A stretch of 54,375 bases of DNA, the filler included, from Bipalium vagum (lineage: Eukaryota): NCBI GenBank assembly GCA_037834085.1. It is 2 parts of 2 records of this genome, joined end to end, with 100 filler letters (N's around TTAATTAATTAA, not from the genome) between each part and the next. Parts side by side here need not be neighbours in the genome. Positions count along the whole stretch, not along the records: positions 1 to 26,921 come from JBBMKC010117662.1; 1 more part is not named here. The stretch is one strand, 5' to 3'. Shown one piece after another: positions 3,979-39,125 of the stretch. Within the stretch, counting starts at the first letter, position 1. Every line of letters starts with the position of its first letter. The position numbers were made by a program, and so were the translations under genes. The notes beneath the pieces are model-generated. The model saw only the letters and a program-made list of their open reading frames with translations. It was not told the origin of the DNA and did not search any database.

Positions 3979-6900
3979 CTGATAAAAGTTTCATTAAAGT
4001 TCTCTGGAGTATAGGCTTAAGGTCATTACTTTGCTTCAAATGCTAAGCCAACACAGGCCGCAGCTAAAGGTGTTGCGGCAGATGTTCCAACAAAGCCTTG
4101 ACTACATGCATTGTTGATTCCTGAGGAAATCTGGAAGGAAGTTCCCAATTAAGGATAGAAATTAATATGTATCGATTTATTCACATATTTTCACAATTTT
4201 AATCTTAAAGGCATCATACACTTCGCAAAATCTGACAGTTAATAAAATTGCTCTTACACCATGGATTCCAGCTATAATCATCGCTAGTCGATATTTGACC
4301 ACAATGAACGATCAGGTATCAGGGTTTTCGACAAGTTACAAAAAAATGTTAATCTTTGGTAAATGTGAGAAAACCAAAGTTACAATCGTGTAATACATTA
4401 CCAAAAAAGAAAGTTTACAACGTTAAAGGTGTATTCAGCAGGAAGCTCATTATTAACTCTATATACCAGGTTTCAATTACTGTGCTCAGAATTGATTGAT
4501 TTATTTCATAACAGGCGTCCACAATTCTTTCATTAACACTGTATCATTTTAAAAAAGTAGGAATAAATTCTTTTGGGTCACATGGGTATAGAAACATTAC
4601 ATTTTGATGGTGTTCTTGGAATTCCTGATGTGTTTTCAGTTTTCCACGGTTTCATCCCGTATAATGCAGTTTTGAAAATTCACACAACCAGATACTTACA
4701 GATTTTTTGGTGCACATGATCCCAAGACTTTGCACTACCGTTTATTACACTCACATTGTACAACTGTTTGGTGTGAGATAACATCGCAGAAAATTTTGTT
4801 ATAGTTTAGTATGTTGCTCATTCTGTTTTTTCTTTCATTTTTCCATTCCCGTTGTACCAACGTTACAGATTCTGTGGAATATTCTAAATATGATACAAAG
4901 ATACTTTTTTCAGTCATGGTTCGACGAATAAATCCACGTTTCATCACCAGTGATGATTAAATTAAATCTGAACTACCTCTGCTAAATTTCTGGAACAATT
5001 TTTCACCATTTAACAAGACATTCTTTTCCAGAAGCTTTCAATTTGTGCTGGATCCATTCTGTACCTTCAGATGGTCGTGTGAAATAATTTCTAATCAAAA
5101 CAAAGAAACTGGTATTCTGACGAGATAAGAATGCGAGCAGATCGGTGGTGTAAAATCATTGGACTTTATTTTGAAGAGTAGTTTTATTGTTATAATTAAA
5201 TAAATATATAATTTTGAACACGAACTTTTGCATCACTGTACTTTCATGACAGTATCAGTGGATGCCTCAATTTCACGGCATGTGATATGTCGATCTCTTT
5301 CAATTATTTCAATTTACAACGATTTATTAATTTTATCTCATTATAATATATAAAAGTAATTTTTCTTCGTTTTGATTGGTGTCTGATATTCTCAACTGTG
5401 GTTGTCTGTTTTCTGTTTTTGATTTTGGAATTTTCCACACATATGATAAATATTAGTGACTGAAATGGGCATTGGTGGACGATCACCACGAAATTTATCT
5501 TTTATATTTGTGCGTTCACGCTGGAATTCTGCGAACCGTTTATAACCGCAGATTTTTGATGATTTTTTATTCCGAAAGACTAAATGAACTAAATCGAGAC
5601 ATTTGTTTTGTATAAAAACGTTTAAAATCACAGTAAATCGTAGAATGGTATTTTTCCAAAGAAAGCTTCATATTTTATTTATAACTTCTATTTCGAATGT
5701 TTACCTATCCACACAAATCGATTACTTATTCAAATGAGTTAGGAAAATTCAATATCGAATTTTTCTCTACTGGGGAGAACAGATAAGCAATGATTATTTT
5801 TAATAACAAAGCACGATAATTTCAAAAGATAAATAAAAAATAATGTTCTCAAGGAAATGGCTATTTCAGCCATACATTTCACCATATTTCTGTTAATTTA
5901 TGGATACCATCTCAAATTAACGTCTCTGGTTTTGAGAAGAACCATTTAGAGATCTGTTTTGAAGTACTGATTAGCAAGTCTATTTGTTATTGACCGGAAC
6001 AAATAAAATTTGGTGACTACGATGAGTGGACGAGCACTTTCCTGGTTATATCTTTTAACATATTTCTAACTGCTTTAGAAGGTTTTGGCGTTGCGTTGTC
6101 ACAGATTTGATTGCGCTGAGATTTAGGAGTTTCACCGGGTTTGAGAATTATCGTTACACATCGCCTTCTTGATCTTACTAGAGACTTTACTTACTTTCTA
6201 TTCAAAGTGGTTTGATCTTGCAGTAGGTTTTGATGATTGACCATGAATTAACCCATGATTTCGTGCTTTTTGCATTTTCAAAATAAATCAACTTTTCATC
6301 TCCTATCAAAATTCTTATAAGAAAGACTTCTTTGTTCAACTTTAACAATATTTCATTTACTTCTCTTTAGTTTTTCAGTTGTCTTTCACCCAATTGATAA
6401 AACAACCATTTCTTTCCTTTAAAATTGTTCACTGAATTGTTTTTGAGATTGGTATGCATTTTCATTTAATAAATTTTCTAAATCATAATATTCAAATTTA
6501 GAAGGGAGGCCTGGATGTTCTTTGTCTTTACACAAGACTATTTATTTCTGAAGAGCTTTAACCAATGATCGCATGTTTTCATAAATCTTACAAAGTATCC
6601 ATTAGTTTTCTAAAGCAATTTTGCTCATCATAAAATGATAATAAGAACCTCCCACAGATGATCGTATCCTAGGAGAAATTTTGACATGTTTAGATCTACA
6701 AATTTTGATATAACATCTTATGCCAATTTGAATAAATTAGTCTAGTAAATATCGATTATTAAAACAAAATGGTTTAGATTTGAATTCAAAATTATTACCA
6801 TATAAATGTCAGTGAATCGATTTAAATAAATCTGTATTATTCATCTGTACACCTAATCTTTATCATTTATAAAACGAGGATTTCACTTAAAGTACTCAAT

Positions 6901-9900
6901 TCCAGAAACTTTCTCAACACCCCAAGTATCAAGATTTGATATTTCATTAATTCTTACTGCTTTACTTTCCAACAAAGATTGAAAAAAATGTCATTCAGAA
7001 GAGCAAGAATTTTCGAATTATATTTTATTAAAAATTAAACGAAAAATAAAGGAAATCAACTGACAAAGTATTATAAAATGCGAGGTTAAATAAAATCGTT
7101 TTATAGTGATAAAGATTACTAGAGAAGGGTTGATGTTTTGTCCACTGCCAGCTGAGAATCCTCCTACAGCTGCTGTGATGCTAATTGCTGAGCATTCTTC
7201 AGTGTAATCTGGTTTTCGTCCGTAGATATTAACAGAAGTTACTGCAATCGTATAAGGTGAATTGACCATGCCATCAGCTCCACAGTGATCCCTGTTATTA
7301 CCTCCATTTCCCGCTGCAAATAGATAGATTGATCCTCTTCCACCTCTACCCTAACATCAAAATAATAAGAAATAATAGAGTTAATAAATATTCCATTTCT
7401 GTTATAATATTATGTATCGAGTGATCTCATTAAAGGTAAAGTGTTCAAAATGAGAATATGAATACAAATTATTGTTTCGCGCATCTTGTTTTTATTTTTC
7501 TAATTCCAATAACATTCCTAAAGATTAGCAAAACATTATAAAGACGTCTTATTCTAAGTCTTTGGTTGTCATATAAAATATTCGATTTTGTGATTGGTTC
7601 AAGAAATGAAGAACCCATGGCATTTTTAACATTAGCAAGCGCTTTCAAATGTCTTAGGAGTGACAACGAATGTTTTAGCATGATCCCAAACATTATGATT
7701 TGAGTTTAATTTCTCCTCACTCAGTAAATTGACATTTTCAATGACGCTCCTGGACTTACCAAATACCACAGCCTAATGGTGCGTTTATTGGCTATACACT
7801 TGCCATATGCCAAATTAATGTTTTCAGCTTTTTCCAAAGCTACGTGTCGAAATTTCAATTTAAATTACTATTCGAAAAAAAGTCTACATCCAAAAAAGAT
7901 ATTGATAACAGTTTGCTATTAACAGTTATCATTATAAATTCCTAAAACCGATGAATCAATAACATCAGAATATTACTGCAACCAATTGGAATTTTTGGAC
8001 CAAAAATTTAAAATTAGCCATCGATCAGTTGTCCACAGAAAATTTTCATTTTGTCGACAGATCTCCTATAACTAAACGAACTTTGCAAAAAGTGAAACAG
8101 CTTTGATATAACAATCTTCCCTATCCCGCAAATTCACCGGACCGCATCGCCTACTGATTATTGTATATTTCAAGTACTTGACCAATTCCTTTCAAGAAAA
8201 ATAGTCAACAATTATAGCAAAATACACCCAAGGAATTCATTATATTCCCAAATAAAGCTTTTATCAAAGTAAGATTTAAAAGTTGCCTTCGGGTTGGGAT
8301 CAATATATTAAATGTCATGGAAACTCTCCTTAATGAATGAATGTCTTTCGTTTAAAATTGTTTAATTTTCATTTTGTTCGTGAAAACAAAATATTTTCAA
8401 ACAACCTGATATTATACATAAATCAATAGTTAATTATTAATTAAATTGATTTTAAATTATTATTATTTTTCGTTTTATATCATTGATCATTTTCTTTAAT
8501 TATCAATTATTAAATTAAATTAATTAATAATTATTTATTATTAAATTAATTAAAATTATTAATTAATTAAAATTATAAATAAATTAAAATGCTGAAGAGA
8601 ATATATTTTGATTTAATCATTGGTGGAGTCTCATTTAAATGAAAGAAGAGCATAAAGTAATTCAATGAGTTATTATTTTATTGTTTTTGTGTACCTTTAA
8701 TTTTATTATACTCCGTAACGCAACAAGCGGTATTATTATTATTATTATTATTATTATTTTTATTAGTATCAGTTTAATATTTATTCAATAAATGAAGACC
8801 TTCAACGATTTTTTAATAGTGATAAAGAAAAAAAATTAGATTAAATAATTGTTATAATTAAAAATGATGACTGATCAAAGTAATAATCAATATTAAATAA
8901 TAAAAATTGTGATATTAAGACAAAATAAAAAAGATCTGTTCCCGAAAAATAATGTTAAATAATAATATTTATTACTCACAATGTAATAAGTTTTAAAGTT
9001 CGCGGAAGGTGGTTTACCTAACGATGGTAACGAGTATTCATTGTTAAATCATAAATTGAGCGTCTGAGAAATACAAAGCCACAGGTAATCAAACCAAACA
9101 AGGAAACTGAAAATCGATTATTGAATGAGTAATAGACAGTCAATGAAGTTAATTTCAATGTTTTTCCTTAGAATTATATTATGGAAGACGCTGTCGCCAA
9201 TCAAAGAACTATCGTCTTTTTTCTGCTGGAAGAAGATGCTAGAGGCGAAATAGTGCGTCGTCTAACTACCATTTCTGACGAAGATGCTATTCGAAAGATA
9301 ACTGTGTATAAATGGATTTATCGATTCAGTAGTGGGCGTCAAAGAATTATTCAAAAAGTAGTAGGCCCGTGATAGAGATTAATCAATCTTATACTTTGCC
9401 AAAGTCAACAGAAATTATCAATTTGATAGGTATCAGTGTGAGGCAAGTGCGCAAAATGTGGATATGAGGAAACTGACATCAACAAGGGTGCATCGCCTAA
9501 TAAAAGGTCAACAAAAAGAAGTGGAAATATGCAGAAAGCTAATTGTAATGAGCGAAGAAAGGGTTACTTACAATAAAGCCAAGGATATCGTCACTGAACA
9601 AACCGCATTCCGATTCACCAAAGTTTGTTTAAATGACTCAGAAAGTTATTGATTAAAACAAAACCAAACATTGCCTCGGAATTACAACAAAGAATTAAAA
9701 GATAATTTCAAAAAAGATCAGAAGAGAACAGAAATTGCCTGAGAATCTTGAATCTTTTTGGAAATGTTTTCAGGTTACTTAATTTTAATATTTTAAAGAA
9801 CTTCAGAACTTTACGTTCCATATCTTCAAAACCTGTGCTTCATTGATTGATTTCACATTGTCAGAGTGCATCTTATCTGATCTGCTCTTCATTGTTTTGG

Positions 9901-12900
9901 TTGCAAGAATAGGTTTCATCAATTGTGAAGAATATTGAAACAACAGACACGCTTGCGTGGGGGGCCTCAGACCTATTGTGATCTGAAACGTTCAATATCA
10001 TCTGGGTAGAGGCAGAAAAGATTATGCCTCGGGGAAAATGAATGCCATTACGGTTTCGAAATGTATTACACAACATTTTTAGTGGATAAAAGAGGAAAAC
10101 AGGGACTTCTGTCTTTCTGGAAGTTACTCTCAGTCAATATATTCTAAATATTAAGCTTAGTTTCCATGTGCAGAAGAGGGTACAAAAAGACATTTGAAAA
10201 AAGTCAGAGGAATGAAACAATAACCGGAAAGAAAAAAATCCGCAAATATTGAACCATATAAAGATCCACTGTAACCTTCTGACAAGTGCAACCATTGGTG
10301 AACCATATGTGAAAATGGCACTAGATGAAAAAATCGTGTGGGATTTGCACTAAGGCGATGTACTTCAGTTACAAGTGGAACCAAGATAATCAATATTGAT
10401 ACAGGAATTCCCTTTCCTGAGAAAATGCTGCCATTTAGCTTCACGAAGGTCTTTTATATGACATCCAATGCCTCGGCTGATAAGTCTTGAAACCATTACC
10501 CTTGCTGACTATTGATATTGTTTCATGGATGTCAAAAATCAATAAGAACTGAAACAATAAAAGCTTTCAGTGTCTGTTGGTCTATTGTTGTCATAATAAT
10601 ACTATTATTTATTTGCATTTTTATATTTAGTATTTTCTTCTTTTTTATATTCTTTTATTATTATTATTATTATTATAAATATAAATATAATGATAATACT
10701 ATTTTGTTATTATTATCATTATTATATTATTATTATTATCATCATGTCACCAATCATTAATCATTCTTATTAGTATAAATAATATAATTTTACAACAATA
10801 ATATTAACAGAATTTTCGATAAAAATAATATAAAATAAAAGGAGATTAATAAAACAATATTATTTTATATATAAAAATAAAATGATAAAAAAATTGTTTT
10901 AATTAAAACAAAAGTAAGAGAAGAAGAATATCGAGCTCTAAACGAGCAAAAACTGGCCATGCTCATTGATGTTTTTCAACAATGTTTGCCATGTGTTCCG
11001 AACGGTCGCTGGCAAACATGTCTGGCTCTGTCGCGGTGGTGTCAGTGTTGACAATGACCAGACTCATTCACCATCGTCAGGGCACAGCGCTCATGACAAT
11101 AGAGACCTTTGCTCTCTGTACTGTCTCAGTGAGTAAGAAGACCAAGCTGTCAACGTGTGCTCTGCACAGTGGCCTCACCATTGAAAGTGAGCATCAGCGT
11201 ATAAGGCTCATACCAGAGCCTGAGCACCGTTTGGTGAGACATTGATAAATAAAAAAGAGAGAAGTGGTGCATTCTCTGAGTTGCATAAATAATAAAGTGA
11301 TGAGACTGGTAATGTCACATATTTTCCATTCGGAAATCGAACCAGTTTTTGACTTATTATCAAATTTAAGTGAGAATTTATCCCTACTTTTTTGGTTCCA
11401 GTTTGTAAAGCTTTCTGCACGTAATGAGTGATAGGAGCTGTTCTGGTACCACTGTCCTTGGGTCCCCAAGAGTTGCTGTATATATCGATGTACTGATTGT
11501 TGTGGGTAAGGGCAAAAGCTTCCAGCAAATCGGTCACCATTGACTTGGCCAGCATCCTGATTCCTACAAAAAGATCTCTTTAGGATGAAAACCCAAAATT
11601 ATCAAAAGATGTCACTAATGAAATGTGCTATTATTATACTCAAACTATAACGGTGTGCTCGTTACCTCTGATTACTTAGTGTTCGTGAATCAAAATAAGC
11701 ACAATACACATTAACCCTTAACCAATCAAAATAATCTTGATTTTACCCCGAATCACAATTATAACAATCGAGAATTCGATCACAAATGGAATAACACAAA
11801 GCCAAACCGATATCAAATAATTTTGTTCGTCAAATTAAGTTAAGTACTGAAATCAATATAAAACAAATCGAAAAAATTATCTTAAAAAAGCTGAAACAAT
11901 TTATTTTTCTCGGACCCCGGGTCGTACGCTAGGCCCTGTACAGTCGTCTATAGATTTCCTACGTTCACAGGACTCAGAAAATTGCTGCTGTGAGCGACGA
12001 TGAGCACAAGAATATAAATTTGAATAGAAACCGGTCCCAATGGAAATGATTTTCTGACGATGACTCCACTGCCTTCCAAAGCTGACTTGAATGAATGGAT
12101 TTACTTCGGTACAAAAACTTTCTGGTTTCAAATGCAAAAACAATATTCTTATAATTCATTCACCGCGATCTTCTAATATCCAATCAATACGACAGTTTCC
12201 ACAATGAATAACTTTTTAAAACAATTTCTCATTTCCCCAATAATCATATCTCGACGAAATGTACAGGCGAAATTCTGTCTCATGTACAGCAATACAGATT
12301 GGCCGGTGATCCCCAGTCTATACTTTTGAAAGGATATTTTCCGTGATAGCCAATTAATTTCAAAATTAACCTTTTGACCCCGACGCTATGTCGACATTGA
12401 GATAAGACCAATCCCTTTTATTATTTTACATAAACGGTGTGACAATAAAGTTCCAGGACGGTTAATCAAACGCGAATCGTACAGTTGTCAAATGAGAATT
12501 GTTTGTGTTGGCAGCACAAGATACAGCTCGTTGAAAGTTCTGAATATTTTATTTCAACTGTTTATCTAAAGAGTATTGCCTAATTGATCTGCTAAGATTT
12601 TAAGCATTGTCACCATTTCAGAACGGAACAGAGAGCGAATATCAAATTTGCTATAGGTTAGGCAAAATATCTATGGAGACCGATGAAATGTTGAAAAATC
12701 GTGTATGGGAACAGCACAATGTCAGGATCTGAAGTCTTAGAGTGGTAATCAAGCTTTCGTGAAGATCGTGATGATGTGGCCGTCCATCTACCTCCAGAAA
12801 TGATGGAAACATAGACAAAATTAAAGAAATTGTTGAAGCCGATAGACGGATTACATTAAAAATGGTCGAAGATAAAACTGAAATCAATAGAGAATCGATT

Positions 12901-15900
12901 CGGAAAATGATGATTGAGGATTTAGGTAAGAAAAAGATATGTTCACGGTTCGTTTATCACAGCTTGCAACGGAGAGTCTATTGGTGCAGAAATTTTTATC
13001 AAATCAATTGTTACTGGTGATGAGCCGTCGTGTTTTCAATATGATCCTGAAACCAAACGACAGAGCATGCAATAGGGTTCAAAGAGCTTTCCCAAACCAA
13101 ATATGTTACGGCTACAAAAATCAATGATTAAAACCACCCTAATTGCGATGGAGTCATTCACAAAGAATTTCGACCTCCTGATAAGACAGTCAATGCTGTT
13201 TATTACGAAGAAGTGATGCCTCGATTTTTGAAAAGAATCCACAGTATTAGACCTCAGTGTAGTGCTAAAGGACGTTGAATTATTTTCGCACTTTCTCATA
13301 AGTCAATAATTGTAAAGAAATTTCTGGCTGAAAAGGGAGATATGGTGATCAACCAAGCACCATATTGACCGGATTTAGCTCCAACAGATTTCATGCTATT
13401 TTCAAAGCTGAAAGCTATACTTTAAAAAGTTTCAAGATATTGAGGATATTCTGACGAATGTTATAAGAGAAATGAAGGGTATTCCAAAAGAGGATTTCAA
13501 AAAAGGTTTTGGCGCTAAGATGTACGAAAAGATGTATAAAGATGTCCTAAGTGTTTTCAAGTAAAAACTGACTACTTTGAGTAATGGTATATGATTTATT
13601 GCTGTCATATGTACCTTTGATTTTGTACAGTTAAAGACCTGGAACTTTATTTTCACACCATGTATTAATATATTTTGTTGGGTTTACCCAAGATAACCCC
13701 CCCCGAGAAAAAAAATGTTATAAATAATAATAATAATAATAATTAAGTTAATTAACTATTGAAAAACAATTAAAAACTCCCGCAAATTTTTATTTTGATA
13801 ACACTTAAAAAATAAAACAGCCCTCCAAAAGTAATTTTTATTTTAAAGAATTCTACAAAACAGGCAGTTTATAAATATTAATGGTCATCAGAAAATAATT
13901 TTTTAGGGAATTTTAGAGTTTTAATAAAATTTTTAAAATTTTAAGATTATTTCAAGAATAATCTCCAGATGAAGATCAGTTTCAGAAAAGTATATAAGAA
14001 GAGGGATTTTAGCATAATTTTACCCCTCAGTAAACGTGCAGTATAAATGTAGCAGAGTATTATTGATAGAAGCAGAATATGATTGATTTCCAGAAGCAGA
14101 ATATTATTGATTTAAAAGGTGAAGAATATTAATGATCATCAGTAAAACAAGTATTTTAATGTCTGGGTTATGCTTAAAATTCCCCATCAGCGGGTTATCG
14201 GTGAGCAACCGTTAGGTCTCAGACGATAACTCGGGAGTTTTAGTGGAAGTAAGCCGTAAGACTTCCATTTCCTTTTATCTTTATTTTTGTTGTTGTTAAA
14301 GTAATTATTAATATTGATTAATTTAGTGTACGAGTAATATTTTGTTTAATTGGATTTTGATTTAAACATTATATCTTAATTGACTTTTATTAGGACTTGA
14401 CATTACTGTTTGATAAAAAAGTAGTTATTTTAAGTATTATTCTATTAAGACATTGTATTTGATTAATTCATTCTTTTGACTTTATTGTTGTTTGGTTATA
14501 TTTTATTTTATTTTGAGAAATAGTTTGATTTGAAAGTTTGAAACATTTCAGACATTAAAAATTGTGACCCCAGACTTTGATCATCATTCTGTATTTTGTG
14601 ATTGTGTGGTATAAATAAAAATTGTTGCTTTACTAATTGTTATTATTTGCACCACCTAGGAGTTGGAGCCAGGTTTAAATTTGATACACAAAATAGTAAA
14701 CAATTTTATTATATTAATATAGTGCTTTTATAATGATGATAATAACAGTAATTATTATTTAATAATTATAATATTAATATCAATATTAATATCCCAGACC
14801 CTTAGTGGTCTCTTGGATTTGTGCCATTATCGAACCCAACAAACATAACGAAGCGAATACAATGGTCAAAGTTTTATAACGGAATGAAAAGTAAAAATCT
14901 TATTTTTCAAAGCCACCTTCAGTACTTTGGATAGACTAGGGTGACCGGCATTGGGTCCGTTTAAATCAACAGTTTGATTTTTTCCAATCATTAATCTTTT
15001 CCTTTATGGTATTTAACTTGAAGCGTCAAACTTCTACCGATTTTCTTGATTAAAGATAATATTATAGTGGGTAAATTGGTCTTTAGTCAACCAAGTTTAG
15101 GGGGTCAGGAACTGAAACATGACAATCCAAATCTAATGACAGATAACTTTATAGGATCACAATGACTTGGCTGTCACCATTTTGCTGGGGTTACCAAGAG
15201 CGCAAGAGTTCGACACTAAAAGAAACCAAAATGCTCGGTATAATTATAATAATAAAAAATTAATCAATAATAATAAAAAATAATTATTAATAAAAAAATT
15301 AATAATTTCATTAAAGAATAATAATTAAAATTAATTGCGCGAAAAATATTTTGAAAAAAAGAAAAATTATTGACTAAAAATTAATCAATCAAACAAAAAT
15401 CAATTTACGAAAAATAGTTCACTGTGTGATTAGATTGCTGAAATACCACAGAGTGCCACTCACTTTAAGTGCAGAGTGATTGCTGAGCCGCTTCATACAA
15501 ACTCAACTCAAAACGATGCAGGGGTACCAACAACTAAGATACCACTACATAAAAGTCTGATGATGGTGCTGAAACCCATAAATTCAAGTCACATTCCACC
15601 AGTATTTGGTTCTATAGTTGATTTCCTTTTATTTTCTTTGATGATTTTAATGATTGAAGAAGCGAAAGAGGTTTAACAATAAAAGGTCAGAGTGTGTTTG
15701 AAAATTGTTTTGTGATGGGACGCTGAAAAGGTCATTCTTTTAGGAAAGACCCTTCATTTATGTTCACTCTGGTTAATGGGCAATTGACAAGGTTGTAATA
15801 TTTGATGGAAGGCTTCAAAAGCCATTTCGAAGTATTATATAAATGATATATTTATATTTTTATTATTATTTATATTGTTATATATATTATTATTATTATA

Positions 15901-18900
15901 TATATTGTTATATATATTATATATATTATTATTATTAGATATATTGTGATATATATTATTATTATTAAAAATTTACTTTTAAATAAAATATGAAATTAAA
16001 AGATTTATAGATAAATTTAGTAATATAAATAAATAATTAAAAAAGAAAATAATTTTAATTTTAAAAATTTTTAAAAAAAATTATTATGAATTATTAATAT
16101 TATAAATCATTTTTATATTGTTAAAGTAAAAGTCCGTTAATAAGGAAAAATTTTTTTTAAAACCTAAGCACAACTGAAAATAGGAAAATAATTAAATAAT
16201 ATAATAAATATATATAAAATGTATAAGTATTTTTCATGAATTCCTTATCAAGAAATACCGGTTGTATCACAACCGAGGACATTGTCTGTCAATTTTGTAC
16301 GAAAATATATTTCATTTAAATCTTTGTATATTTTTAGATATTTCATAGAAGCAGGTTTTGTTTAAATGAATAAATGATGATCAATATTTCTAATTTAGGT
16401 ATGAATCGACATTTGAAAATTGATTTAATTCGATTTAATTAGGATAATGGAAATTCCCATAAAGATGCAATTAGGGAAATCAGACGCAAAAGAAATATAA
16501 CTAAGGACCCATGTACATGTTCTGCACAATCCAAAGAAGTGAAAAAACTGGGATTTGTTGTCAATATATTACATTATATAATATAATTATTATTAAATTT
16601 TTGAAATTATAAATAATAATGTAACATAAACCTCCCAAATTGGCTCTGAATGCGACTCCAAAACTGCAAAAACTGTTGTTTGCTTCTGCTGCAATAACAC
16701 TGGCACAAAGCGTACCGTGACTATCTTTGGAAGGCATTTCCTTAATGTACTGAGGCCCTCGGGGATTTGAGTTGACATTTCGAGGGTCATTTAGATCTAA
16801 AGAGGCGGCAGGATCAAAATTATTTTTCAGATCAATGTGCCTTGTGTCAATACCGTCATCAATAACGGTAATTACGATGCCCCGGCCTGATATATTGGCT
16901 TTGAGCACACTAAAAATGTTCATGTCAAGACCTGGATTCACGCCTTGATATTGACCTTTATTATTCTATGGATTATGGACAGATCCGATTTTATCAATTA
17001 ATTTAAAATGAATTAATTACATATTGCCATATATTCAGAAACTCAGGATCATTGAGAAAGAAGTCCCGGTTTCGATATTCTCGTTCCTCGACGAGTTTTA
17101 AGTATTCCATGTCATCCTGATAACCATTTTATATCGTCATTCAACACAGTTAACAAATTACTTTAGACAATTTCTCATTCTCCTTTCCTTCATTACTGTC
17201 ACTAACTTCATCTTTCACTTCTTCTATCCTTGGAATTTTCTTTTCATTCTTAAAAAAATTTTATAAAGAATATAAATTGTAAAATATTAATAATTAGAAT
17301 AAAATAAAAAAAATTTAAAAAAATGGACGAATTAAAATCAATATAAGAATACTTATAAAGGTAATAATTATTAAAATAATATAATATTTTTATATTATTT
17401 ATTTAGGCTATATATTTGTGGGTATGCGAAAGATTGTTTACTGAAATTAAACAAGAATGCAAGTTATCAGCCCCAGTCTACATTAGACTTAGAAAATTTC
17501 TAATTTCACAGATCAAAGAATATTGGATAACTAATCCCATAAGATTGGGTGGCCCTGGTCAGACAGTGTAATGTGATGAAACAAAAATAAATCACAATGT
17601 CAAAGCTCACAGAGGAAGAACACCAATTACACCAACTTGGGTTTTAACCATTGTTGACACTTCTTTTAAACCAGCAAGAGGATACGTCGAAATTATACCC
17701 GATAAAAGAAGTGTCACAATTTTGCCTATAAAAGGTGGTTAAATTTGGATCAATAATTTATTTTATTAATGAATTTATGTTCTTAGACTTGTTCAAAGAA
17801 AATTCATTTAATAAAATATTGTTATTGTTAAATTTAATAAATCTCTGGTTTAATTATTTTTTTTCATTTGTTTTATGAAATATTAATATTTCAGTGTTGT
17901 GTTAATTTGTCCAAAAATTTGGGGTTGTGAGATTAAATTGGTTATTTATCGGAGTTGTGAGATTTAATTGGTTGTGTGACGGGGTTGTGAGATTTAATTG
18001 ACCGGGTTTGGGATTGTCAGATTTAATTCGTCCATTAAAAAAATAAAAAAATAAAAAATAAATAAAAACAATAATAAATAACAATACTAACACAACATAT
18101 ATCAAGAAAAAGTGACATTAATTAATAAAGATAAGTCTAATTACATATTTGGGTTTAGAAAATTATTTTATTGTTTAATATTACATTTATCAGAAAATAC
18201 TTCACGACCTTTGAAAAAAAAGAAAATATTTCTCTTGTAACGAAAAATCTCATTAAGTATTAAAAAAGTTATCAATACTGAGATACAATTAAANNNNNNN
18301 NNNNNNNNNNNNNNNNNNNNNNNNNNNNNNNNNNNNNNNNNNNNNNNNNNNNNNNNNNNNNNNNNNNNNNNNNNNNNNNNNNNNNNNNNNNNNNNNNNNN
18401 NNNNNNNNNNNNNNNNNNNNNNNNNNTTATCCTCTGCATCTGATTTGACCTCGAGTTCCACATATTCATCCATTTCATTAGCAAAATTCTTTTGGAAATC
18501 TTCAAGGACCTTCATTTTTACTTCTTTACTTAAATATTTATCATCATATAAATATTCCGACAAATATTCCTGTTCCTTTAGTTCTACTTCCAGATCCACT
18601 TGCTTTTCAACTCTGTGGATCTTTCATCAAATTAAAAATGGACTTAAAAGTCAAAGAATTCCTGTTACCATTGGATGTTCTTTCAATATCTGTAAAATGA
18701 GTTCTGAAACGTCTCTTTTACAGCGCTCATTTGAGCAGCCGTTTTTATGTTTCAAATGGTAGACATTGCCAAGAGCACTGACCTTCAAAGAGATATTCAA
18801 AAATGATTCTTTCAGAAATCCTCGTCATACCTTCCGAACAACTTCTATATTATATGAGCTGAGATCCAAGTTGGCTTCAAGATCATCCATATCCATTTCC

Positions 18901-19620: not shown

Positions 19621-20429
19621 AGTTAAATTGATTTCCAATTTTTCAGAATAGTTAAAGATTTCCAATAAGAATACCAACAAACAACAGGTTTAACATTTTT
19701 ATACATGCCTTCATGGTCATCAACTGAAAGAAAAGTTTTTAATTTTATCTTCATATTATTTATTAATTTATGAAAGTCTTCATATTCTTTTGTTACTTTT
19801 GTGATCACATTTTAACTATTATTAAAAAATTTGACTTTTAAAATTCAATTTTTCATTTTTTGATTAAGTCAAGAAATAATAAAAAATTTCTTGTAAAACG
19901 TTTCATTTCTATTTCTTTTAAGTCTTTTGTCCACCTTTAGAAATATGTAAAATTTCTTTATCTTTTTTTTCTATTTTAGTTAATGTTTTATTTTTTTCTT
20001 CAAATGAAATTAGTTGATTTTGAAAATTAGCTAAAAGAGAATTATTTTTTTCCTTACTGTTCTATTTACACTAATTTCATTTAGTAAATCTTTTCTAACT
20101 TGTTTTATATTAGATGATAACTCTATAAAACATTGCTTCGCATATTTTAAATTTAGAACATCATTATCATTTATTGGATAAGCAACATTTATTTTTTTTA
20201 TTATTCATATTTAAATTTATAATTCCTTTCATAATCATACCAGTAACCCTTTCCAAAAATAAAAAACTATTTAGCAAAAAGATTTTATTTATTGAATAGA
20301 CACTTGGTGTGGATAAAGTCATGAGACTCGTACAGAAACTAAAATAAAATTTCATGAAATTTCAAAAATAAATTAATTAATATTGTATATAGATAAGTAT
20401 TATTATATTTGTTTTAAGTGGTAAGCTTT

Positions 20430-20835
20430 TGTTGACATTAGGTACGACTTTTTTTGAAAAAATGTATCATCAAGTGGAATTCCGAAGAGTCAAATGGTTT
20501 TTGATGTTGAAGAAGTCAGAAAAGAAGGAAATTATTTCTCAAGCATATGGAAATGAAACACCATGCAAGGCGACTGTATACAATTACAAGGTTCAGAGAG
20601 TTTTCCTGTGGCAGGAACAATGTGTTTGACGAAGATAATAGGAGATGACCTACAGAAATTGGAGAACAAAAATTAAAAAAATTGTAGATAATAGTCAAAG
20701 AAGAAAGAAAAATTGTACAGAGAGAGCTTTTAACTAAACTTAATTTAAGAAGACTGTGCAGAACATGCTAGAGAGTATTGGAGCCAAAAAATATGTCTCT
20801 CGATTTCTGACAGCAGAGATGCGACAAAAGCGAAT
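20430..20835 (+). mobile_element. Mariner 5' relic abutting Gypsy pol
   Basis: 'ISQAYGNETPCKATVYN' HTH and 'VSRFLTAEMRQKR' (WVP region). Confidence 0.75.
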
Positions 20836-22410
20836 GAAACCATATCACTCACCTGTCGTAATGGTAAAAGAGAAAGATGGATCGATACGAATGTAAATTG
20901 ATTATAGGATAGTAAATGAAGTTACGCGAAAGGAGACATATCCGATTCCAGTGATTGAGATGATGTTCGACAAGATCAAGAGGTCAACAATATTTACAAT
21001 GATGCATCTTCAGAAGGGTTATAATCAAATTTGGAGAGAAAAGAGAGTAAATATAATCGAGAAACCAGTGGATTAATTAATGGGGAGAAGAGCAACAAAA
21101 GGCTTTTGAATAATTAAAGTAGTTAATTCAAGAGAGACCCAGTTATGACAAAATCATTTCTACTAATGACGGATGCTAGTGAATATACAGTTGGAGCAGT
21201 GCTAGCACAAAAGTCAGAAGAATAGCGTACGGTAGTAGTGGTCTGAAAAACCATGAAATGAATTATGCGACAATTGAGAAGGAAGCATTGGCGATAGTGT
21301 TTGCGATGAAAGTGTTTAGGCACTATTTTTGGGGACGTAAAACTATTCTATTCACCGATCACAGTCCATTACAAGGTTATAAAAGAAAAGAGATACTGTT
21401 ATTAGATTGATTAGATGGGCATTGCTATTACAAGAGTATGATATCAAAGGAATTATTCCTGATGATTAGGTAAAGAATTGGGAAAAGTTAAGAGATAAAT
21501 TTAAAATAAAGAAAGGAGTATTATATTTTTTCAGAGGTGAAGTGGTAGCGTGTAAAGATAGAGAACGGTTAATAATGCAATACCACCATGGAGCACTTAG
21601 GAGTCATCTGTCAGCTAGGAAAAAGTTGTCGAGAATTACTTTTGGCCAAAGATGAAACATGGCATTAGAAATTGGTGTCAGTCATGTAAAATTTGTAAGG
21701 CACGAAGAGGAACAGGAGCCAGAACAAAAGTACCATTAAAACCAATTAAAATTCCTACAGTACCAATGGAAATGGTGAAAATGGACGTCGTAGGGCCGTT
21801 TTGAAGAAACATTATTAGGAAATAAATTCGTAATTGTTTTATGCGATTACTTTACCAAGTGGCCAGAAGCGTACCAGAGAAGAAACAAAAAGAAGCAACC
21901 ATGGCCAAATTTTTTGTCGAGGAAATCATTTTTAGGTTTGAGGCATCAGGAAAAATATTAACAGATAAGGGAACCAATTTTATGAGTGAATTGAAATATG
22001 CGTGGTATTTGGAATTTTTAATGCTATATAAGTCACCGTATAGGCCACAGAAAGACGGATTAGTTGAAAGATTCAATAGAATTCTACTCAAAATGCTGTA
22101 ATCGTGCACAAATACACAACAAACGGACCGGGATTTACAAATTCCATCGTGTTTATATGTGTATCGTAACGGAATACACCCAGTAACGAGAGAGACGCCG
22201 TTTTACCTAATGTATCTCAAAAATAATAATATGTCAATTGATATGTATTACGTCAAACCAACATTATAATAACTGGAAGAGGAGGATTATAAAATTGTGA
22301 TTCAAGAAAGACTGTAGAAAGCTTGATAAAAGACAGGACTCAATATAAAACATGGACAAGAGAAGTACAAGAAGCGTTATGACAAATCGGCAAAAGAACA
22401 CAATTTCAAA
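20835..22410 (+). mobile_element. Decayed Ty3/Gypsy pol (RT N-terminus, RNase H, integrase)
   Basis: RT: 'PYHSPVVMVKEKDGSIRM*IDYRIVNEVT..YPIP' and 'LQKGYNQI'. RNase H: 'LMTDASEYTVGAVLAQ', 'NYATIEKEALAIVFA', 'FTDH'. Integrase: 'CQSCKIC', 'MDVVGP', 'ILTDKGTNFMSE', 'SPYRPQKDGLVERFNR'. The RT-RH-IN order is Gypsy; the YxDD segment is deleted. Confidence 0.95.
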
Positions 22411-22621: not shown

Positions 22622-23055
22622 ATGGAATTCAAGCAAGTTAAGATGGTGACCACACCAGCAGACCCGCTAGTGGAAAGACTTCTTCCAAAAATGTTGAACC
22701 GTTCAGATGATCAACCAATTATTTATCTATTTATCAACCAATGCCGCCGAATTTTCGATGTTTTGAAAAAGCCCAAGAAAATGCGAGAAGCTCTTATCTA
22801 TGCGATGATCGAAGAAGACATGATCGGGGAATATGAAAGGACAGAAATGTGACGGATGGATTCGACTCTCGATTACATCTAGCATTTGCCAAAGAAAAGG
22901 ATGTGGTTACAGAATGGGAAGAACGGGTACAATACCGACGTGGTTCAGAGAGCATTCAGACTTTTTCAAAAGGTCAAAATAGTGATGGAACACCAGCTAA
23001 CAGAATATGAGTTAGTTGCCAAAATGCTTTACGATCTTAGGTCTTACGATACATT
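22622..23055 (+). mobile_element. Possible retrotransposon gag (capsid) N-terminal relic
   Basis: 'LLPKMLN..DDQPIIYLFINQCRRIFDVLK..KMREALIYAMI' has a gag-like pattern (FI..C.R.F); stop and frameshift at 22852. Confidence 0.45.
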
Positions 23056-23058
23056 CAT

Positions 23059-23267
23059 TTACTCGAGCTCTCTGGAATCCGTTTCCTGGTAGATGTGATA
23101 TTCTACACCAGTCTGTTTCATTTTAGTTGGATATGCTTCTGTGCATTCCTCTGGATCCATTAGCGAATATATTTTACCAATCTTAGGTTTGTTACAATCG
23201 TAAGCTACTAAGGCATTGCCTCTGTCCAACATATTCATAAACATGAATATTCATTGGTAGCCACATA
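23059..23267 (-). pseudogene. Env-like glycoprotein N-terminal fragment (chuvirus-type GP signature)
   Basis: Frameshifted signal peptide (MWLPM../IFMFMNMLDRGNA) followed by LVAYDCNKPKIGKIYSLMDPEEC...YHIYQE. This fits the [AG]YDC-x8-[YI]SL-x-D-xxx-C start I recall from chuvirus-like class III fusion proteins. Truncated. Confidence 0.65.
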
Positions 23268-23773
23268 TTTGATGGCTATTCTTGCTCTGATCTCTGCTGC
23301 TTCCTTCTACGGCTCTCTAAGTTGCTCGTAGTCTGAATTATCTTCATTTCCTGTTTCTCTTGTATATTCACGTCTACGATTCCTTGGATCTGCTTCTCTT
23401 GATTTCTGTTGTCAGTCTGATTGCTCTTGCTTTGTGAGTAAAAATCCTTTCCATCCTTTATGTAATTTGAGCCATGGTTCAAAGAAATCATTTATCTTCT
23501 TGTTACCTTTCCTTACTAACAAATCTAGACTTTGTCACCCACCTTCTTTATTTATCTTTACTAACCTTATACCGACTAAAACTTTTTCTTTATCTGCTCC
23601 TTCTTCTACTAAGCATCCTAGAACCAAATCATCATTTATTAATCGGTTCATCTAAAAAATCTTCAACATGGAAATTTATTTACCTTTTTCATTTCTTCAA
23701 ATATGTCAAGAGTTAAGTTATCTCCATCCTCATTTAGCGGATCCATCAAGTTTATTAATTGTCTAATAATGTT

Positions 23774-24445
23774 TTAGTCATCCGTTGTTTTCATATCATA
23801 AAGTTCTTTTTCATGTTGCTTTCGATATTTCTCAGCCAGTTTTATCAGATAGCGTCTTCTCAAACTATCTCTAGTTTCTGCTCTGATACCGATAGGCCTA
23901 TGTAACTGTCTATCCATCCTTGGTCGACCAACCGGATTACTTCCGGGCATAGTCTGTCTGACCTTTGCTTGACTTGATTGTGCTACATCTGGTCTTATCT
24001 CTATTAGTTCATCCTGCATCATTACGTTGAGTTCCATGAATTCACTTGGTATTCCCACTTCATCTTCTTCACTTTCTACTGATATCACGTTATCAGGACC
24101 CTCTAATAGTTGACTTTGATTTTGTCTAGCAGAGACGAGTTCATCCTGCAATGTTATCTGTACATCTTGCAGTACTTCAGGTTGTCTTTGACTTATTCCG
24201 ATTGACCCTTGTACTAATTTGGGCTGCTCTGATTGTGCTAACTTTGCTTCTTCTTGTTCTAATACATTTGATGGGTTAGTCATCACTTCTGGGCGTTCAA
24301 GTTGTTGGCCTAACCAAAGAATTACTATTATCCACTGATTTCTCATATTCTCTTCTGCCATCTTTCTCAATTTCTTTACCTGAGTGCAGTAATGCAACTT
24401 AAGATCAAGTTCCTTACAATTCAGCATCCTAAATTTAACTTTCAA
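23774..24445 (-). CDS. 223-aa Q/E-rich accessory ORF of the LTR element, unknown function
   Basis: Longest open ORF in the window; lies between gag/protease and the env-like fragment on the same strand; acidic stretch, AT-hook-like 'PVGRPR', basic helical tail. Confidence 0.45.
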   Translation of the reverse strand: MKVKFRMLNCKELDLKLHYCTQVKKLRKMAEENMRNQWIIVILWLGQQLERPEVMTNPSNVLEQEEAKLAQSEQPKLVQGSIGISQRQPEVLQDVQITLQDELVSARQNQSQLLEGPDNVISVESEEDEVGIPSEFMELNVMMQDELIEIRPDVAQSSQAKVRQTMPGSNPVGRPRMDRQLHRPIGIRAETRDSLRRRYLIKLAEKYRKQHEKELYDMKTTDD

Positions 24446-24599
24446 TGGTCTGATGTCAATTTATTTCCGCTTGATGTGGTCCAAACTCCACCAAATATGG
24501 TTTAACTTCTTTTATTACCCTTTCTAACAATGGTGGTGAAATTGATATCTCCAAAATCTGACAAAACAACTATGAGATACTTTCATGTTCTCTAGATAC

Positions 24600-25520
24600 T
24601 TGTGCCATCGCTTCTTTCAATAAAGCAGGAAACCCCTCTGGTTAATCTGTATCCAAATCCACCATAGCTAACACCAACTCACTTTCTTTATTTACTTTTT
24701 TTCACCAAATCTTTTTCTCTAATTAATACACTTATATCTTCATTCTCATTTGTCATCATGGTTAACGTAACAAACATTAATCATTGATAATTGCTTCCTT
24801 AACTCTTCATTTTACGCTTTGAGCCTGTTCACTTCTCTATCCGACTCATCTCCTGATAATGCATTTATTTTTGCCTTACCACTGAAGGCTAACATTTTAA
24901 CAGGCTTAATTTCCTCACTTAGACATGATTTAGCTACATGTCCATACTGTTCGGACTTGAAACATTGAATTTTCCCATCAATGTTGATTACATCTCTTTG
25001 CGTTGGTTTCTTTGACCAGAAGTCAGTCTCCAAATGACACCTTTTATGACAACTTTTAGATACCTTGACTCGACAATCTTTAGCCTTACGACAACGAATC
25101 TGACAATTACTGCATGTAATATCTGAGTTATCACCTCTACTAGAATCTCTTTTCAATTCTGTACATTTAGAACACTTTCTCTCTGAAACTCCAGGCTGTT
25201 CCTTGTTACCTCTTCTAGATCTTTCTGGTCTTTTAATCATTTCATAAACTGTATTCCTTTCTAATCCACTCATATTCATTTCCATTTTTTTTGGTTTCTG
25301 GATTAACTCATCGTAATCTTTATATTCAATTAAACTGAGTGCTATCCGCAACTCCTGACTCATTCCGATCTAAAATTGATCTTCAATTAATCTCCTTATT
25401 TACCTCAACCATGTTCTCTTATACAAATGCACACTCCGCCAGTATTCCTAGCTGGTAGGCAAATTCACCAATCATGTAATCTCTTTTCTGCTTTCTCTGC
25501 TAAAACATCTGTCTGTTCAG
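24600..25520 (-). mobile_element. Decayed LTR-retrotransposon gag with multiple zinc knuckles and a protease remnant
   Basis: ORF 24812..25363 has four degenerate CX2CX4HX4C units (CSKC, CSNCQIRCRKAKDC, SCHKRCHLETDF, CFKSEQYGHVAKSC); 'VLAMVD' near 24660 sits where an aspartic protease motif is expected. Confidence 0.85.
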
Positions 25521-26660
25521 CTTTTCCAGGTTCCCTGGAATCAATCGACTTGTCAATTCAGCTAGTAATTAATTTTAAATTAATAATTAAAATACGTAAT
25601 TTTAAATCAGCCAGCGTATTACTTAAATTTTATTTACAGAAACTTATAAGATTGGAGTTGAACCTCAACAATTTTAATTAATTAAAGTGAATTTCATAAT
25701 TCACTTGCAATTTATTTTATTTGAGTTATAATAAACTCTGATAAATTTTGTTAAAATTTTAGTTATAATAAACTAAATGTTAAGATTTTTAAAAACAAAT
25801 TTTTATGATTTTTCTCTGGGTATTTATACTATTTTTCTTCTAGTTATATTCTTGTGTAGTTATTTTAAATAATAATATAAGATCAAGGCAATAATAATTT
25901 TTACTAAATATAATTACTTAAACAAATTTTTCAAAAAAGGACCTCCCATATTTTTTAAAACTAAATTATTTACTTAATAAAAATTTACTAACATTTATTT
26001 AAAATATTTTATTGAATATTTAAAAAAACCGTAACCTAATAATTTTTAAAAATTTTAAATTAAAAACATAATTAATAATTGTTAATTTAGGTGTAGGTCC
26101 TTATTTTAAAAAATTCAAGCAAACTAATTGTTCGAACCACTCCTTATGCTCCTCATGTGTGCTCCTTCAGGCTTCTCGTATTCAAGCTTTCTCCTGTCCA
26201 TCTATCAATCCAAGCGGATATGCCTTCAGGTTTACTTTTATTTTATTATTTATTATTATAAAAAATATTTTATCATAATATGTTTAAAAGTTTTATAAAA
26301 TAAAATTTTTTTTATCAAATAATGAAATGTTTTTTATCACATAATAAAATGTTTTTAGCCACATAAATGTTCACAAAAATAAAATTGTATAATGTTTTTT
26401 AACCACATAAACTAAAATGTTATCAAATAAAATGTCTCCACTATTTTAAAATCATAATATTTCATTGAAACTGTATTGACACTGACGGGACTGCTATATC
26501 TCCTTTTCTTTTTAATTTCCGATGCCCACAAGTCCATGATACGTGCAGAAAATTTTTGAGACCCATTCAGAGCCCACACTAGGAACAAAATATAATTAAT
26601 ATTTTTCTCTTTAATATTGAAATCTCCAATATTTCAATTTCTACGGTTATTTTATAAGAT

Positions 26661-26921: not shown

Positions 26922-27021
26922 NNNNNNNNNNNNNNNNNNNNNNNNNNNNNNNNNNNNNNNNNNNNTTAATTAATTAANNNNNNNNNNNNNNNNNNNNNNN
27001 NNNNNNNNNNNNNNNNNNNNN
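26922..27021. other. Two 44-N gaps around TTAATTAATTAA
   Basis: N 26922-26965 and 26978-27021, flanked by ATT repeats. Confidence 0.95.
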
Positions 27022-27280: not shown

Positions 27281-28498
27281 TATGGGTTGTCCCGAAGGTT
27301 TTTTCTGCTTATGTTTAGTAATTTTACGAATTTATGAATGTAATAAATCTCAAACGCATATAATTTTTAATAGTATTCAGTAATTCTAACATTGTTTAAA
27401 TTTATTACTTCATTTAGCTTGTTTAAATCTGTTTGGCGGCTTTTCAAATGGATAATAAAAATGAAAATTTGTGGCATATTGTTCTATTTTACTTTAACAA
27501 AGGCAAAAATGCAGCACATGCGCATCGAAAAATATGCGAAGTACATGTCACTGATGCGATAACAGAGCGCACGTACCAGAATTGGTATAGGAAACTTCGT
27601 TCCGAAAATTTGACGATTACAGTAGTTATCCATTCTGGGAGGCCAATAGAAAGTACTGATTTTATTCAAAAAAAGATTTCATTGAAGTTAATCGACACGA
27701 AACAGTTCATGAAATGGCAGAGAAACTAAAAATATCCAAAAATGATGTTAGTAAACATTTATGAAAGCTGGGATACGTAAAGAAGCTCATATCTGGATTT
27801 CACATGAATTAACGGCAAATCACTTAATGAAAAGAATCAATATCTGCAAGATGCTGTTAAAGCCTGATCAGATCAATTCATTTTTGAAGGATCTCATCAA
27901 CGGTGATGAAAAAATGATTTCTTACAAAAATGTTCAGCGCCAGAAATCATGACCAGTGAGCCTCCTCAAACAACAACAAAAGCTGAAACTCACGAGAAAA
28001 ATGTTATGTTATCAGTCTGATGGGATTATAAGAGAATTTCATATTTCGAGCTCCTACTGAATAACAGTACCATCATTTCCGATGATTATTGTCAGTAACT
28101 GGATAAATTAAAAGATTCTATGCTGTAGATTCGGCCGAAATTAGCAAATTGTGGATGTTTTGTGTTCCACTATGACAATGCAAAAGCCTCACACTTCTTT
28201 GAAGAGTCGTCAAAAATTAGTGGAACATGGATGGGATTTGCTCTCAGATCTATCATATATTACTGACACTATCTGACTATTATTTCTTTCGTTTTCTACA
28301 CGAAAACCTTACCTCAGATTGTACCCGAAATCGTTTTTCGATCAAAAAAACCAGATGCTTTTTGAAAAGGGAATCATGTTATTGCAAATTGTCGATAATA
28401 GTGCAGACTATTCTATAGCATAAAGTTTTTCTGTGTGTTTAATTTTTTCCCTTTTTATTTCATAGTAAATTAGGAAAGAACTATCGGGCAACCAAGTA
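27281..28498 (+). mobile_element. Near full-length defective mariner (~1.2 kb)
   Basis: Imperfect TIRs (GGTTGTCCCGAAGGTT / AACTATCGGGCAACC) with TA flanks. HTH 'HIVLFYFNKGKNAAHAHRKICEV', 'WISHEL', 'INGDEK', 'FHYDNAK', 'LSDYYFFR'. Confidence 0.92.
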
Positions 28499-36179: not shown

Positions 36180-36825
36180 TAAAGAGTTTAATTGTAAAAA
36201 CCAGATTTGCCGCCCAACAACTTGGTATTGAAAATAATTTCAAGTTTCAGCATGATAGGGATCCGAAACACTGTGAAGATCGTGACAAAGTGGTTGGAAG
36301 ATATAAGTGTTGAGGTCTTGCAATGGGTTGGTCAATCACCTGACATGAATACTATTGAGAATTTATGGGCCTATTTGAAAAGAAAAGTGAAGAGAAGGGA
36401 GATAGCTGGAAAAGAAATGTTAAAAGCATGTCTTATAGAAGAATGGCAGAAAATTCCTTCTGATTTTGGTAAAAAACTGGTGCAATCAATGGATAATAGA
36501 TGTCAAATAATATTAAAAAATTAATAACAAAGGAGGTTCAATAAAATATTAGACATGCCACATACATTTAATACTTTTTTGTTTATATGTCATAAATATA
36601 ATCGTAAATAAAATTCTTGTGGTCTTCATTTCCTGAGTTTTCCAAAAATAAGCTCATAGATTTTTGAAAATATTTAGTTTGATCTTTAGGCTACATCATA
36701 CTTCTATATTAATTGCTGTCCATTATATTAAAATTATTTTTCAATATTTATTTTGTCATAGTGCTTCATAAATCTAACTATTTTAGAAATTAAGTGATAG
36801 TACGAATACTTTTGCAGGTATTGTA
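36180..36825 (+). mobile_element. Tc1 (DD34E-type) 3' half with right TIR
   Basis: 'FQHDRDPKH', 'WVGQSPDMNTIENLWAYLKRKV', 'GGSIKY*'; TIR-like TACGAATACTTTTGCAGGTATTG-TA at ~36801-36825. Confidence 0.92.
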
Positions 36826-37967: not shown

Positions 37968-39125
37968 TATTGGATGGTCAAATATGAAATTTGTAAAAAA
38001 TAAGAAAGTTTGTATTAATAAAATAAAAACACAAAGAATTAATCTAATCATTGAAGGATGGAGTCTATGCACTTTTGTCATTTAAGCGGCAGTTTGTTCA
38101 TACCGGTTGTATAAAACCCTGGCGGACGGGAGTTAATGAATTCCTGAAAAGTGAAGAAGTTCCAACACCAATTACTGTAGTTTGTGCACAGTTATTTGTG
38201 CAGTATGTGGTCTAGCGTTGTCATAAATTAAGATAGGAGTCGATCTTTTGATCAATCTTGGGTTTTTTTCTTTCAGTTTTTCTATCATATCGTCCCACTG
38301 CTTGTAGTATACTTCTGCCGTAATCGATGATCCAGATTTCATGAAATCAAAATGGATGATACCTGCACTAGACCACCAAACACTCACCATCAGCTTCTTC
38401 TTATGAATTTTAGACTTTAAAGTGTGTTTTGGGGCTTTATCTTTGATCGGCCATTGTGCTGAACGTTTGCGAATATCATATTTGATCTATTTCTCGTCAC
38501 AACGATGCGATTCAAAAATGTATCAGATTTGTGACGAGAAATCAGCACCAAAGAAGCTTCCAAACGCTTTATTTTCTGCTTTCTATTGAGTTCATGTTGA
38601 ACCCGTTTATCAAACTTTTTCACTTTGCCTATTTGAGATAAATGAAATAATATTGTTTGCTTACTGACACCAAATTTCAAGGATAAATCATGGGCTATTT
38701 GAGATAGATCAGACTCAATGGTGACCCTTAGTTGGTCATTACAGACTTTTGTCCTGGCCGACCGAGTAGCTCATTGTAAGGCCAAATTGACCTTTTCGAA
38801 ATTCAGCAAATCAATTTTCCACCTTCTGGTGTGCAATTACACTGCAGCCAAATACCCAATTAATATTTCGCGCAGTCTGTGAAGCTGTAGTTCTTCGTAA
38901 AAATGCATATTTCATGATTTGAATTTCTGCTTCTTCATTTTCAAATAATTTGATTATTAAAAGAAATAATAATTATTATTTCAAGATTATATTGATTTGT
39001 TTAACAGGCATTAAAATGTAACTTTCTAAGAAAACCGAATGCTAAAATATGAAGCCATTGTCAAATAATCAGCTGTTAAAACTGACAATGCATGACCTAT
39101 AAATTTCATACTTGGTGACCCAATA
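37968..39125 (-). mobile_element. Near full-length defective mariner
   Basis: TIRs TTGGATGGTCAAATATGAAATTT / AAATTTCATACTTGGTGACCCAA with TA flanks; 'RVQHEL', 'MVSVWWSSAGIIH', 'YDNARPHTA'. Confidence 0.93.

Follow-up and report, generated by a model that had tools for sequence, protein, structure and literature searches.

Burro elements and the GAG-ENV-POL errantiviruses

Gypsy elements that carry a gB-type envelope in the order GAG-ENV-POL have been described from Nematoda, Bryozoa and Platyhelminthes (Chary and Hayashi, eLife 2026, PMC13524379); the table of that paper has 9 elements of the kind from flatworms, 10 from bryozoans and 36 from nematodes. The same work reports 114 arthropod Gypsy elements that were found with a chuvirus-like BEL/Pao glycoprotein as bait, and its authors argue that the link between gB-type envelopes and Gypsy is ancient. 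The planarian Burro elements encode a gag with two to three zinc knuckles, a Ubi/SUMO-like domain, a BCL2-like domain, an envelope and a protease (Arkhipova and Yushenova 2019, PMC6431247). The Burro envelope matches mononegavirus fusion glycoproteins, the insert stands between gag and pol without breaking the frame, and Dugesia japonica contains decayed Burro fragments (PMC6431247). Chuvirus-like envelopes are also known from BEL/Pao elements, such as Anakin of mosquitoes (Dezordi et al. 2020, PMC7642597; PMC13524379), and the available part of Dezordi 2023 (PMC10084718) describes no clear case of a Gypsy element that has taken up a chuvirus glycoprotein.

The locus described here lies in a stretch of 54,375 nucleotides, referred to throughout as the window, and is very probably a dead, rearranged, planarian-type GAG-ENV-POL Ty3/gypsy element of Burro order with a herpes-gB-type (Mono-Chu) envelope. 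It is like Platyhelminthes C1a (Smed_errantivirus_1-6, PMC13524379) in its envelope family, its N-terminal motifs, the Gypsy pol and its likely flatworm host. In C1a the envelope precedes pol; in the window gag is followed by env with no pol between them, and env is followed by pol in the relatives, the window's own pol being on the other strand. Unlike C1a, the present copy is dead and truncated, the adjacent pol is inverted and LTRs were not seen. Each of its genes is broken by stops, frameshifts or deletions, whereas intact, multi-copy ORFs are the mark of C1a.

The likeness to Burro and GYPSM1, giant Gypsy elements of planarians, lies in a BCL2-like domain directly before env and in three CCHC-type knuckles, all of them degenerate here. 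The Ubi/SUMO-like domain that precedes BCL2 in Burro has a possible counterpart in a stretch that aligns to P0013 and lies where P0015 matches Pfam ubiquitin, with a profile score within the shuffle range and an all-helix model. In contrast to Burro, only about 1.7 kb separate the end of gag from env, a comparison made with the published description of Burro and not with its sequence. The giant size (>30 kb) and the MATH, Smc, BIR, ankyrin and dUTPase components of Burro were not detected, which may reflect losses from a copy that is itself a fragment. Because the giant size and the extra domains are lacking, the locus is filed as a fossil of the Burro-like GAG-ENV-POL errantiviruses and not as Burro proper. 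Anakin shares the broad glycoprotein family of the envelope, but it is an arthropod BEL/Pao element, whereas gag and pol are of Gypsy type here. Troyka (PMC12440569), which was also considered, showed no link to the locus in the part of that paper available.

The locus itself matters little, as it is one more decayed copy from a published group. It does tie Burro to the flatworm GAG-ENV-POL errantiviruses, two descriptions neither of which names the other in the parts available; neither 'bcl' nor 'burro' occurs in the available text of PMC13524379, which does not mention Bcl-2 or ubiquitin-like parts. Compact relatives with a block of ubiquitin-like domain, Bcl-2-like domain and envelope are common among metagenome proteins. 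Were the host to turn out not to be a planarian, the known range of the group would widen.

Gag, the long open frame and the envelope fragment

The first-pass annotation had read gag, an open frame and the start of an envelope in this order on one strand at 23059..25520, and this series was confirmed on the minus strand; the envelope starts inside that span, but its homology runs on to about 23018. The C-terminal part of the gag capsid (25413-25568, minus strand) contains two stops and aligns at 37.5% to residues 101-140 of P0009, and the end of the capsid follows with a linker in another frame (25175-25384, minus strand), aligning to P0009 from residue 154 and to residues 146-191 of P0015. 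A gag profile built from three relatives matched 25565-25413 with 22.9 bits and 25384-25277 with 11.4 bits, compared with shuffle maxima of at most 4.8 bits. No N-terminal half of gag could be located further upstream, where 25550-25852 is without a Pfam match. The nucleocapsid (24923-25174, minus strand) aligns to P0013 and P0015 and contains three degenerate knuckles, at about 25114-25073, 25060-25019 and 24964-24923, each of which lacks at least one ligand; they align to the knuckles of P0013 (residues 135-192 and 255-280) and P0015 (residues 192-210). The profile confirms the identity of gag, but of the four zinc knuckles previously annotated none is intact (zero regular-expression matches to C-x2-C-x4-H-x4-C), and only a bare CxxC at 25174 stands for the fourth.

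Between gag and the long open frame, the sequence at 24480-24800 (minus strand) had been taken for a protease remnant. Comparison with the proteases of six relatives in three frames gave a best result, among 18 tests, that was equalled by 14 of 500 shuffles, and a Pfam scan of the region in three frames returned no match. The stretch is better described as a decayed linker that weakly resembles the segment preceding the ubiquitin-like domain in relatives: its best frame was equalled by 13, 1 and 21 of 500 shuffles (uncorrected) in comparisons with three relatives, and the local profile was silent.

The long open frame comprises 228 codons from stop to stop and 217 from the first Met, and no other in the window exceeds it in length. 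Its first part (24305-24445, minus strand) is probably a ubiquitin-like domain, as it aligns to residues 475-548 of P0013 with a score reached by none of 2000 shuffles. At the same position, P0015 matches the Pfam ubiquitin family (E 0.0033), the only one of four stretches scanned to do so, the window's own stretch being silent. A profile of three ubiquitin-like sequences found its best match in the window here, but at 6.5 bits this is within the shuffle range (maximum 7.2). Comparison of the whole region with six relatives was weak (18 to 694 of 1000 shuffles), a single-sequence structure model of the stretch was all helix (pTM 0.44), and no direct match to Pfam, the PDB or the Atlas was obtained. 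The rest of the frame (23777-24304, minus strand) is a Q/E-rich spacer that forms part of the polyprotein in relatives. It contains a GRP motif, which we take to be AT-hook-like, and GRP motifs are found by eye at similar places in P0013, P0015 and P0026. No Pfam match below E 0.1 was found for the 228-codon frame. The frame had been annotated as a 223-residue accessory ORF; the open frame exists, but it has 228 codons and, judging from the position of the same region inside the polyprotein of relatives, is part of a gag-env polyprotein, read in its frame, rather than an accessory gene.

A Bcl-2-like domain corresponding to the BH1-BH2 region, with one internal stop, follows at 23430-23648 (minus strand). 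The local Bcl-2 profile scored 27.5 bits on this stretch, compared with at most 6.5 bits on shuffles, and the stretch is 35% identical to residues 72-148 of P0001 (E 2e-11). A PDB search with the stretch placed schistosome Bcl-2 (3qbr/7jmt, E 0.013) at the top, followed by BCL-xL, with three of seven rows unrelated. P0001 itself retrieved BCL-xL in all 54 rows (best E 0.056), in an alignment reaching through the anchor, and no Bcl-2 match was obtained in the PDB with the relative P0023. Weak Pfam Bcl-2 matches, all under the curated cut-offs, were seen in three relatives, and the stretch itself has no direct Pfam match. Of the 14 relatives with at least 100 residues before env, seven match the local profile, six of them being members of it. 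A chromo-like segment had been proposed here; a chromodomain gave no Pfam match, and the segment is Bcl-2-like and sits before env rather than after integrase.

The envelope is preceded by a decayed linker with a broken internal signal-like segment (23251-23429, minus strand; three-frame reading). All but a few of the envelope relatives have a hydrophobic segment ahead of the YDC motif, and such a stretch is partly present in the window, with a stop directly upstream of the open frame of the envelope. The signal peptide described earlier is thus only partial, but the motif that was reported with it, LVAYDC-x8-YSLMDPEEC, is indeed located in an open frame (23062-23250, minus strand) of 63 codons from stop to stop and 61 from Met. 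The frame corresponds to positions 12-69 of the 653-position Pfam profile PF24664 (Monjiviricetes_fusion; E 7.3e-5), scoring 21.4 bits against a curated cut-off of 27 bits. A search of 1.84 billion representatives with this fragment identified 31 proteins at E<=0.001, the best at 6e-12. Homology crosses a frameshift near 23075, and the piece in the second frame is 56% identical over 23 residues to P0002/P0032. The fragment (23018-23250, minus strand) amounts to the N-terminal 80 or so of about 650 residues, and the other 570 or so are absent. Taken together, these matches indicate that the envelope fragment is real and belongs to the gB-type group, in agreement with the chuvirus-type glycoprotein proposed originally. 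The class III fold of this group is taken from PMC13524379; a single-sequence model of the relative P0007 reached a pLDDT of 33 and a PDB sequence search returned no match. A word-indexed sequence search with the fragment also returned no match, and an index of sequencing runs listed one run, with 0.42 of the query words, and no RNA run among the matches listed.

The gene order of the family was read from the relatives, of which 30 of 31 were scanned against Pfam. PF24664 was present in 25 of the 30, the long proteins scoring 290 to 320 bits. Zinc knuckles stand ahead of env in P0013 and P0015, and a protease follows env in single ORFs of P0013, P0016, P0025 and P0026 and, weakly (E 0.0018), of P0009. 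P0016 continues through the whole of pol, reading env-protease-RT-RNaseH-integrase, and in none of the 30 does pol precede env. The order in the family is gag-env-pol, so there is no gap between gag and env where a pol would be missing, and the earlier remark that pol was missing does not apply: the opposite strand contains a pol, at 20786-22410. These relatives are also the ones to which the gag, ubiquitin-like and Bcl-2-like pieces of the window align, with the order preserved. By eye, the envelope of P0011 is that of Smed_errantivirus_1 at 104 of 111 residues, and P0005 also matches Smed_errantivirus_1. When the rows for Smed and Bryozoa were compared by eye, the end of the window's envelope was similar to the six from Smed, unlike the ten from Bryozoa.

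Opposite-strand pol and its flanks

The plus strand on the far side of the envelope encodes a broken pol. Reverse transcriptase is represented by its N-terminal part (20786-21031; PF00078, E 0.002), which aligns to residues 248-316 of P0039 and then jumps to residue 504, about 190 residues having been deleted. A frameshifted RNase H of the Ty3/gypsy type (21081-21448; PF17917, E 6e-19) and a broken integrase (21479-22410; H2C2 zinc finger and core, PF17921 and PF13683) follow, the latter stopping before the C-terminal domain. The order RT-RNaseH-IN with Gypsy-type domains is the one by which Ty3/gypsy elements are recognized; the order as such is common to BEL/Pao too, and no BEL/Pao family was matched.

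Among 14 RT-bearing matches, P0039 and P0016 are the nearest to the RT piece (54%), ahead of the next at 47%. The RNase H comparison discriminates less well, as a protein from outside this set also reaches 64%. The integrase search gave 31 matches, six of which (P0035-P0040) are at 47-52% and all others at or below 38%. In the integrase tree (30 rows, 172 columns, with three short matches dropped and published errantivirus pol outside the sample), the window falls in a clade with support 98/93 together with those six and the env-bearing P0016. P0039, which contains pol, and P0007, which contains Bcl-2-like and envelope regions, are both listed with a single ENA contig, 20,084 bases long in either case, suggesting that the two are on one contig. 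Alignment and tree thus place the opposite-strand pol in the same lineage as the env-bearing elements. It would be the 3' half of this copy in inverted position or else belong to a sister copy placed head to head, and we regard these as about equally probable. No related locus was found when P0039 was searched against viral contigs and P0016 against prokaryote genomes; P0035 gave a single 1.3-kb locus, at 37%, in metagenomes.

Between pol and the envelope, a broken plus-strand frame (22622-23015) gives Atlas feature matches of 0.87-0.91 that include DUF7041, DUF4939 and Retrotrans_gag. These serve as a lead only, to a possible N-terminal piece of the gag capsid of another element; the frame matched neither the local gag profile nor the proteins of the relatives. 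On the left, the RT piece adjoins a probable Tc1/mariner remnant (20400-20830, plus strand), identified by a weak HTH_Tnp_Tc3_2 match (E 0.026) and otherwise by eye. No piece of env, protease or RT was detected outside 20.7-25.7 kb (0 of 127 HSPs, 63 proteins against the window), and an Rfam scan of 1-25900 and 27100-54375 returned no match.

Identity of the locus and rival explanations

Across the copy, 13 stops were counted in 1094 homologous codons, along with seven frameshifts (the latter by hand). No long direct repeat that could represent LTRs was found within the window, as is expected given that the copy has lost both ends. The locus is very probably an ordinary dead copy of a known group that involves no new gene capture. 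The first-pass annotation had instead suggested that a Gypsy-type element in a probably non-arthropod host had captured a chuvirus glycoprotein separately. The fragment does belong to a Pfam family of Monjiviricetes glycoproteins, and Dezordi 2023 (PMC10084718), in the part available, is without a clear Gypsy capture; however, the relatives are retroelement polyproteins that include near-copies of the published S. mediterranea element, and the 55 flatworm, bryozoan and nematode elements tabulated in PMC13524379, with the ancient origin argued there, together with the domain order already given in PMC6431247, leave a separate, previously unknown capture very improbable. That the element is Gypsy-type is likely right, as gag aligns to Gypsy-type gag and the adjacent pol falls in the P0016 clade. 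The reading as an Anakin-like BEL/Pao element beside an unrelated Gypsy pol could appeal to the chuvirus-like envelopes of BEL/Pao (PMC7642597, PMC13524379) and to the location of pol on the other strand. It is already largely refuted and keeps almost no probability: the gag finds its alignment partners in gag of the Gypsy type, whose knuckles are single and CCHC-type, the env-bearing P0016 has Gypsy-type RT-RH-IN and clusters with the adjacent pol, and no BEL/Pao family is among the matches listed for the 30 relatives.

That a free viral glycoprotein fragment, a non-retroviral EVE, landed beside an unrelated gag might be proposed from the mere 80 or so residues that are left amid nested debris, but it is extremely unlikely. 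The pieces upstream of the fragment (Bcl-2-like, ubiquitin-like and gag) have the order and strand of intact relatives, which links env to gag as had been supposed, and purine skew, positive up to about 23000, is negative and uniform from 23100 to 25500, switching at the end of the envelope. Scarcely any more credible is the idea that the 228-codon frame is an accessory gene, domesticated or functional to this day. In its favor, no open frame in the window is longer, yet with decay as observed 31% of simulations produce a run of this length, and the region is internal to the polyprotein in relatives. The preferred reading thus remains a decayed Burro-like GAG-ENV-POL errantivirus.

The intact ancestor of such a copy would most likely have encoded a single polyprotein, starting with the Gag capsid and knuckles and continuing through the ubiquitin-like domain, the spacer, the Bcl-2-like domain, an internal hydrophobic signal and a single-pass glycoprotein to protease, RT, RNase H and integrase. 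This domain order is seen in the relatives, and the polyprotein would presumably have been processed. The ancestor would have been copied by reverse transcription and integration, as is established for Gypsy elements generally; the envelope would have permitted spread from cell to cell, and the Bcl-2-like domain may have dampened apoptosis of the host cell. The present copy does none of this, all of its genes being broken. In seven relatives, a BH2-like motif is followed by 27 to 56 residues and then by the hydrophobic segment that precedes env. It is possible, though on balance doubtful, that in intact relatives the captured Bcl-2-like gene has retained a C-terminal membrane anchor, which also serves as the internal signal sequence of the envelope. 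If so, processing would yield a retroviral Bcl-2 that is anchored in the membrane and faces the cytosol, and would at the same time thread the fusogen into the ER; an apoptosis blocker and an envelope would form a coupled module in a broad, sparsely described radiation of compact Burro-like elements. The idea was not met in the literature searched, whose scope did not extend to Lee et al. 2026 and Grohme et al. 2018. The Bcl-2-like module may act as a functional apoptosis regulator that the retroelement encodes.

A non-arthropod host, as originally suggested, is likely right. The GC content of the window is 27.8%, and published values are 29.5% for S. mediterranea, 24.1% for D. japonica and 41-46% for two other flatworms (PMC13238120). 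GC content and envelope relatives fit a triclad, as do the many mariner remnants and the spliced exons of a furin-like gene in the window, and the host is probably a flatworm of this kind. The furin-like exon that was searched is uninformative, its sole match being a krill protein at 43%.

Segments after env or integrase in relatives of the element

In the env-bearing clade, four of the pol proteins, namely P0016 (which carries env, protease, RT, RNaseH and integrase) and the close integrase relatives P0035, P0036 and P0039, have an extension of 350–450 residues C-terminal of the integrase. This extension begins with a signal-like stretch and ends with a transmembrane-like segment, and it may be a second membrane protein within the polyprotein; Pfam gave no family of note for it. 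In four other relatives (P0013, P0025, P0026 and P0037), several tandem aspartic-protease-like repeats are placed after the env or after the integrase.

Database entries with unusual context

The gene models of P0005 and P0011 join an env piece of the Schmidtea mediterranea errantivirus type to host genes, the host parts being an FAD-oxidase C-terminal domain and mitochondrial ribosomal protein L47, and these fusions are probably annotation chimeras. P0016, an animal-type env-bearing retroelement polyprotein, is assigned at NCBI to a Flavobacteriaceae MAG; contamination of the bin by the host is the most likely cause.

Other features of the window

The stretch from the end of the integrase to that of env holds a broken frame (22622–23015, + strand) with no assigned relative, for which gag capsid is offered as a lead only. 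Within 3747–16965 on the minus strand, a divergent furin/proprotein-convertase gene has exons at about 16630–16965, 11380–11560, 7100–7350 and 3747–4016 separated by introns of 3–5 kb; motifs of the catalytic region are discernible in the exons. The window is also rich in decayed transposase remnants of the Tc1/mariner and pogo/Tc5 types (471–809, 9172–9369, 27427–27950, 36198–36521, 38175–38770, 42814–43134, 44555–44818 and 46010–46258). Positions 26922–27021, where two runs of 44 Ns flank a 12-base spacer that carries stop codons in every frame, are an assembly gap marker and not a biological feature.
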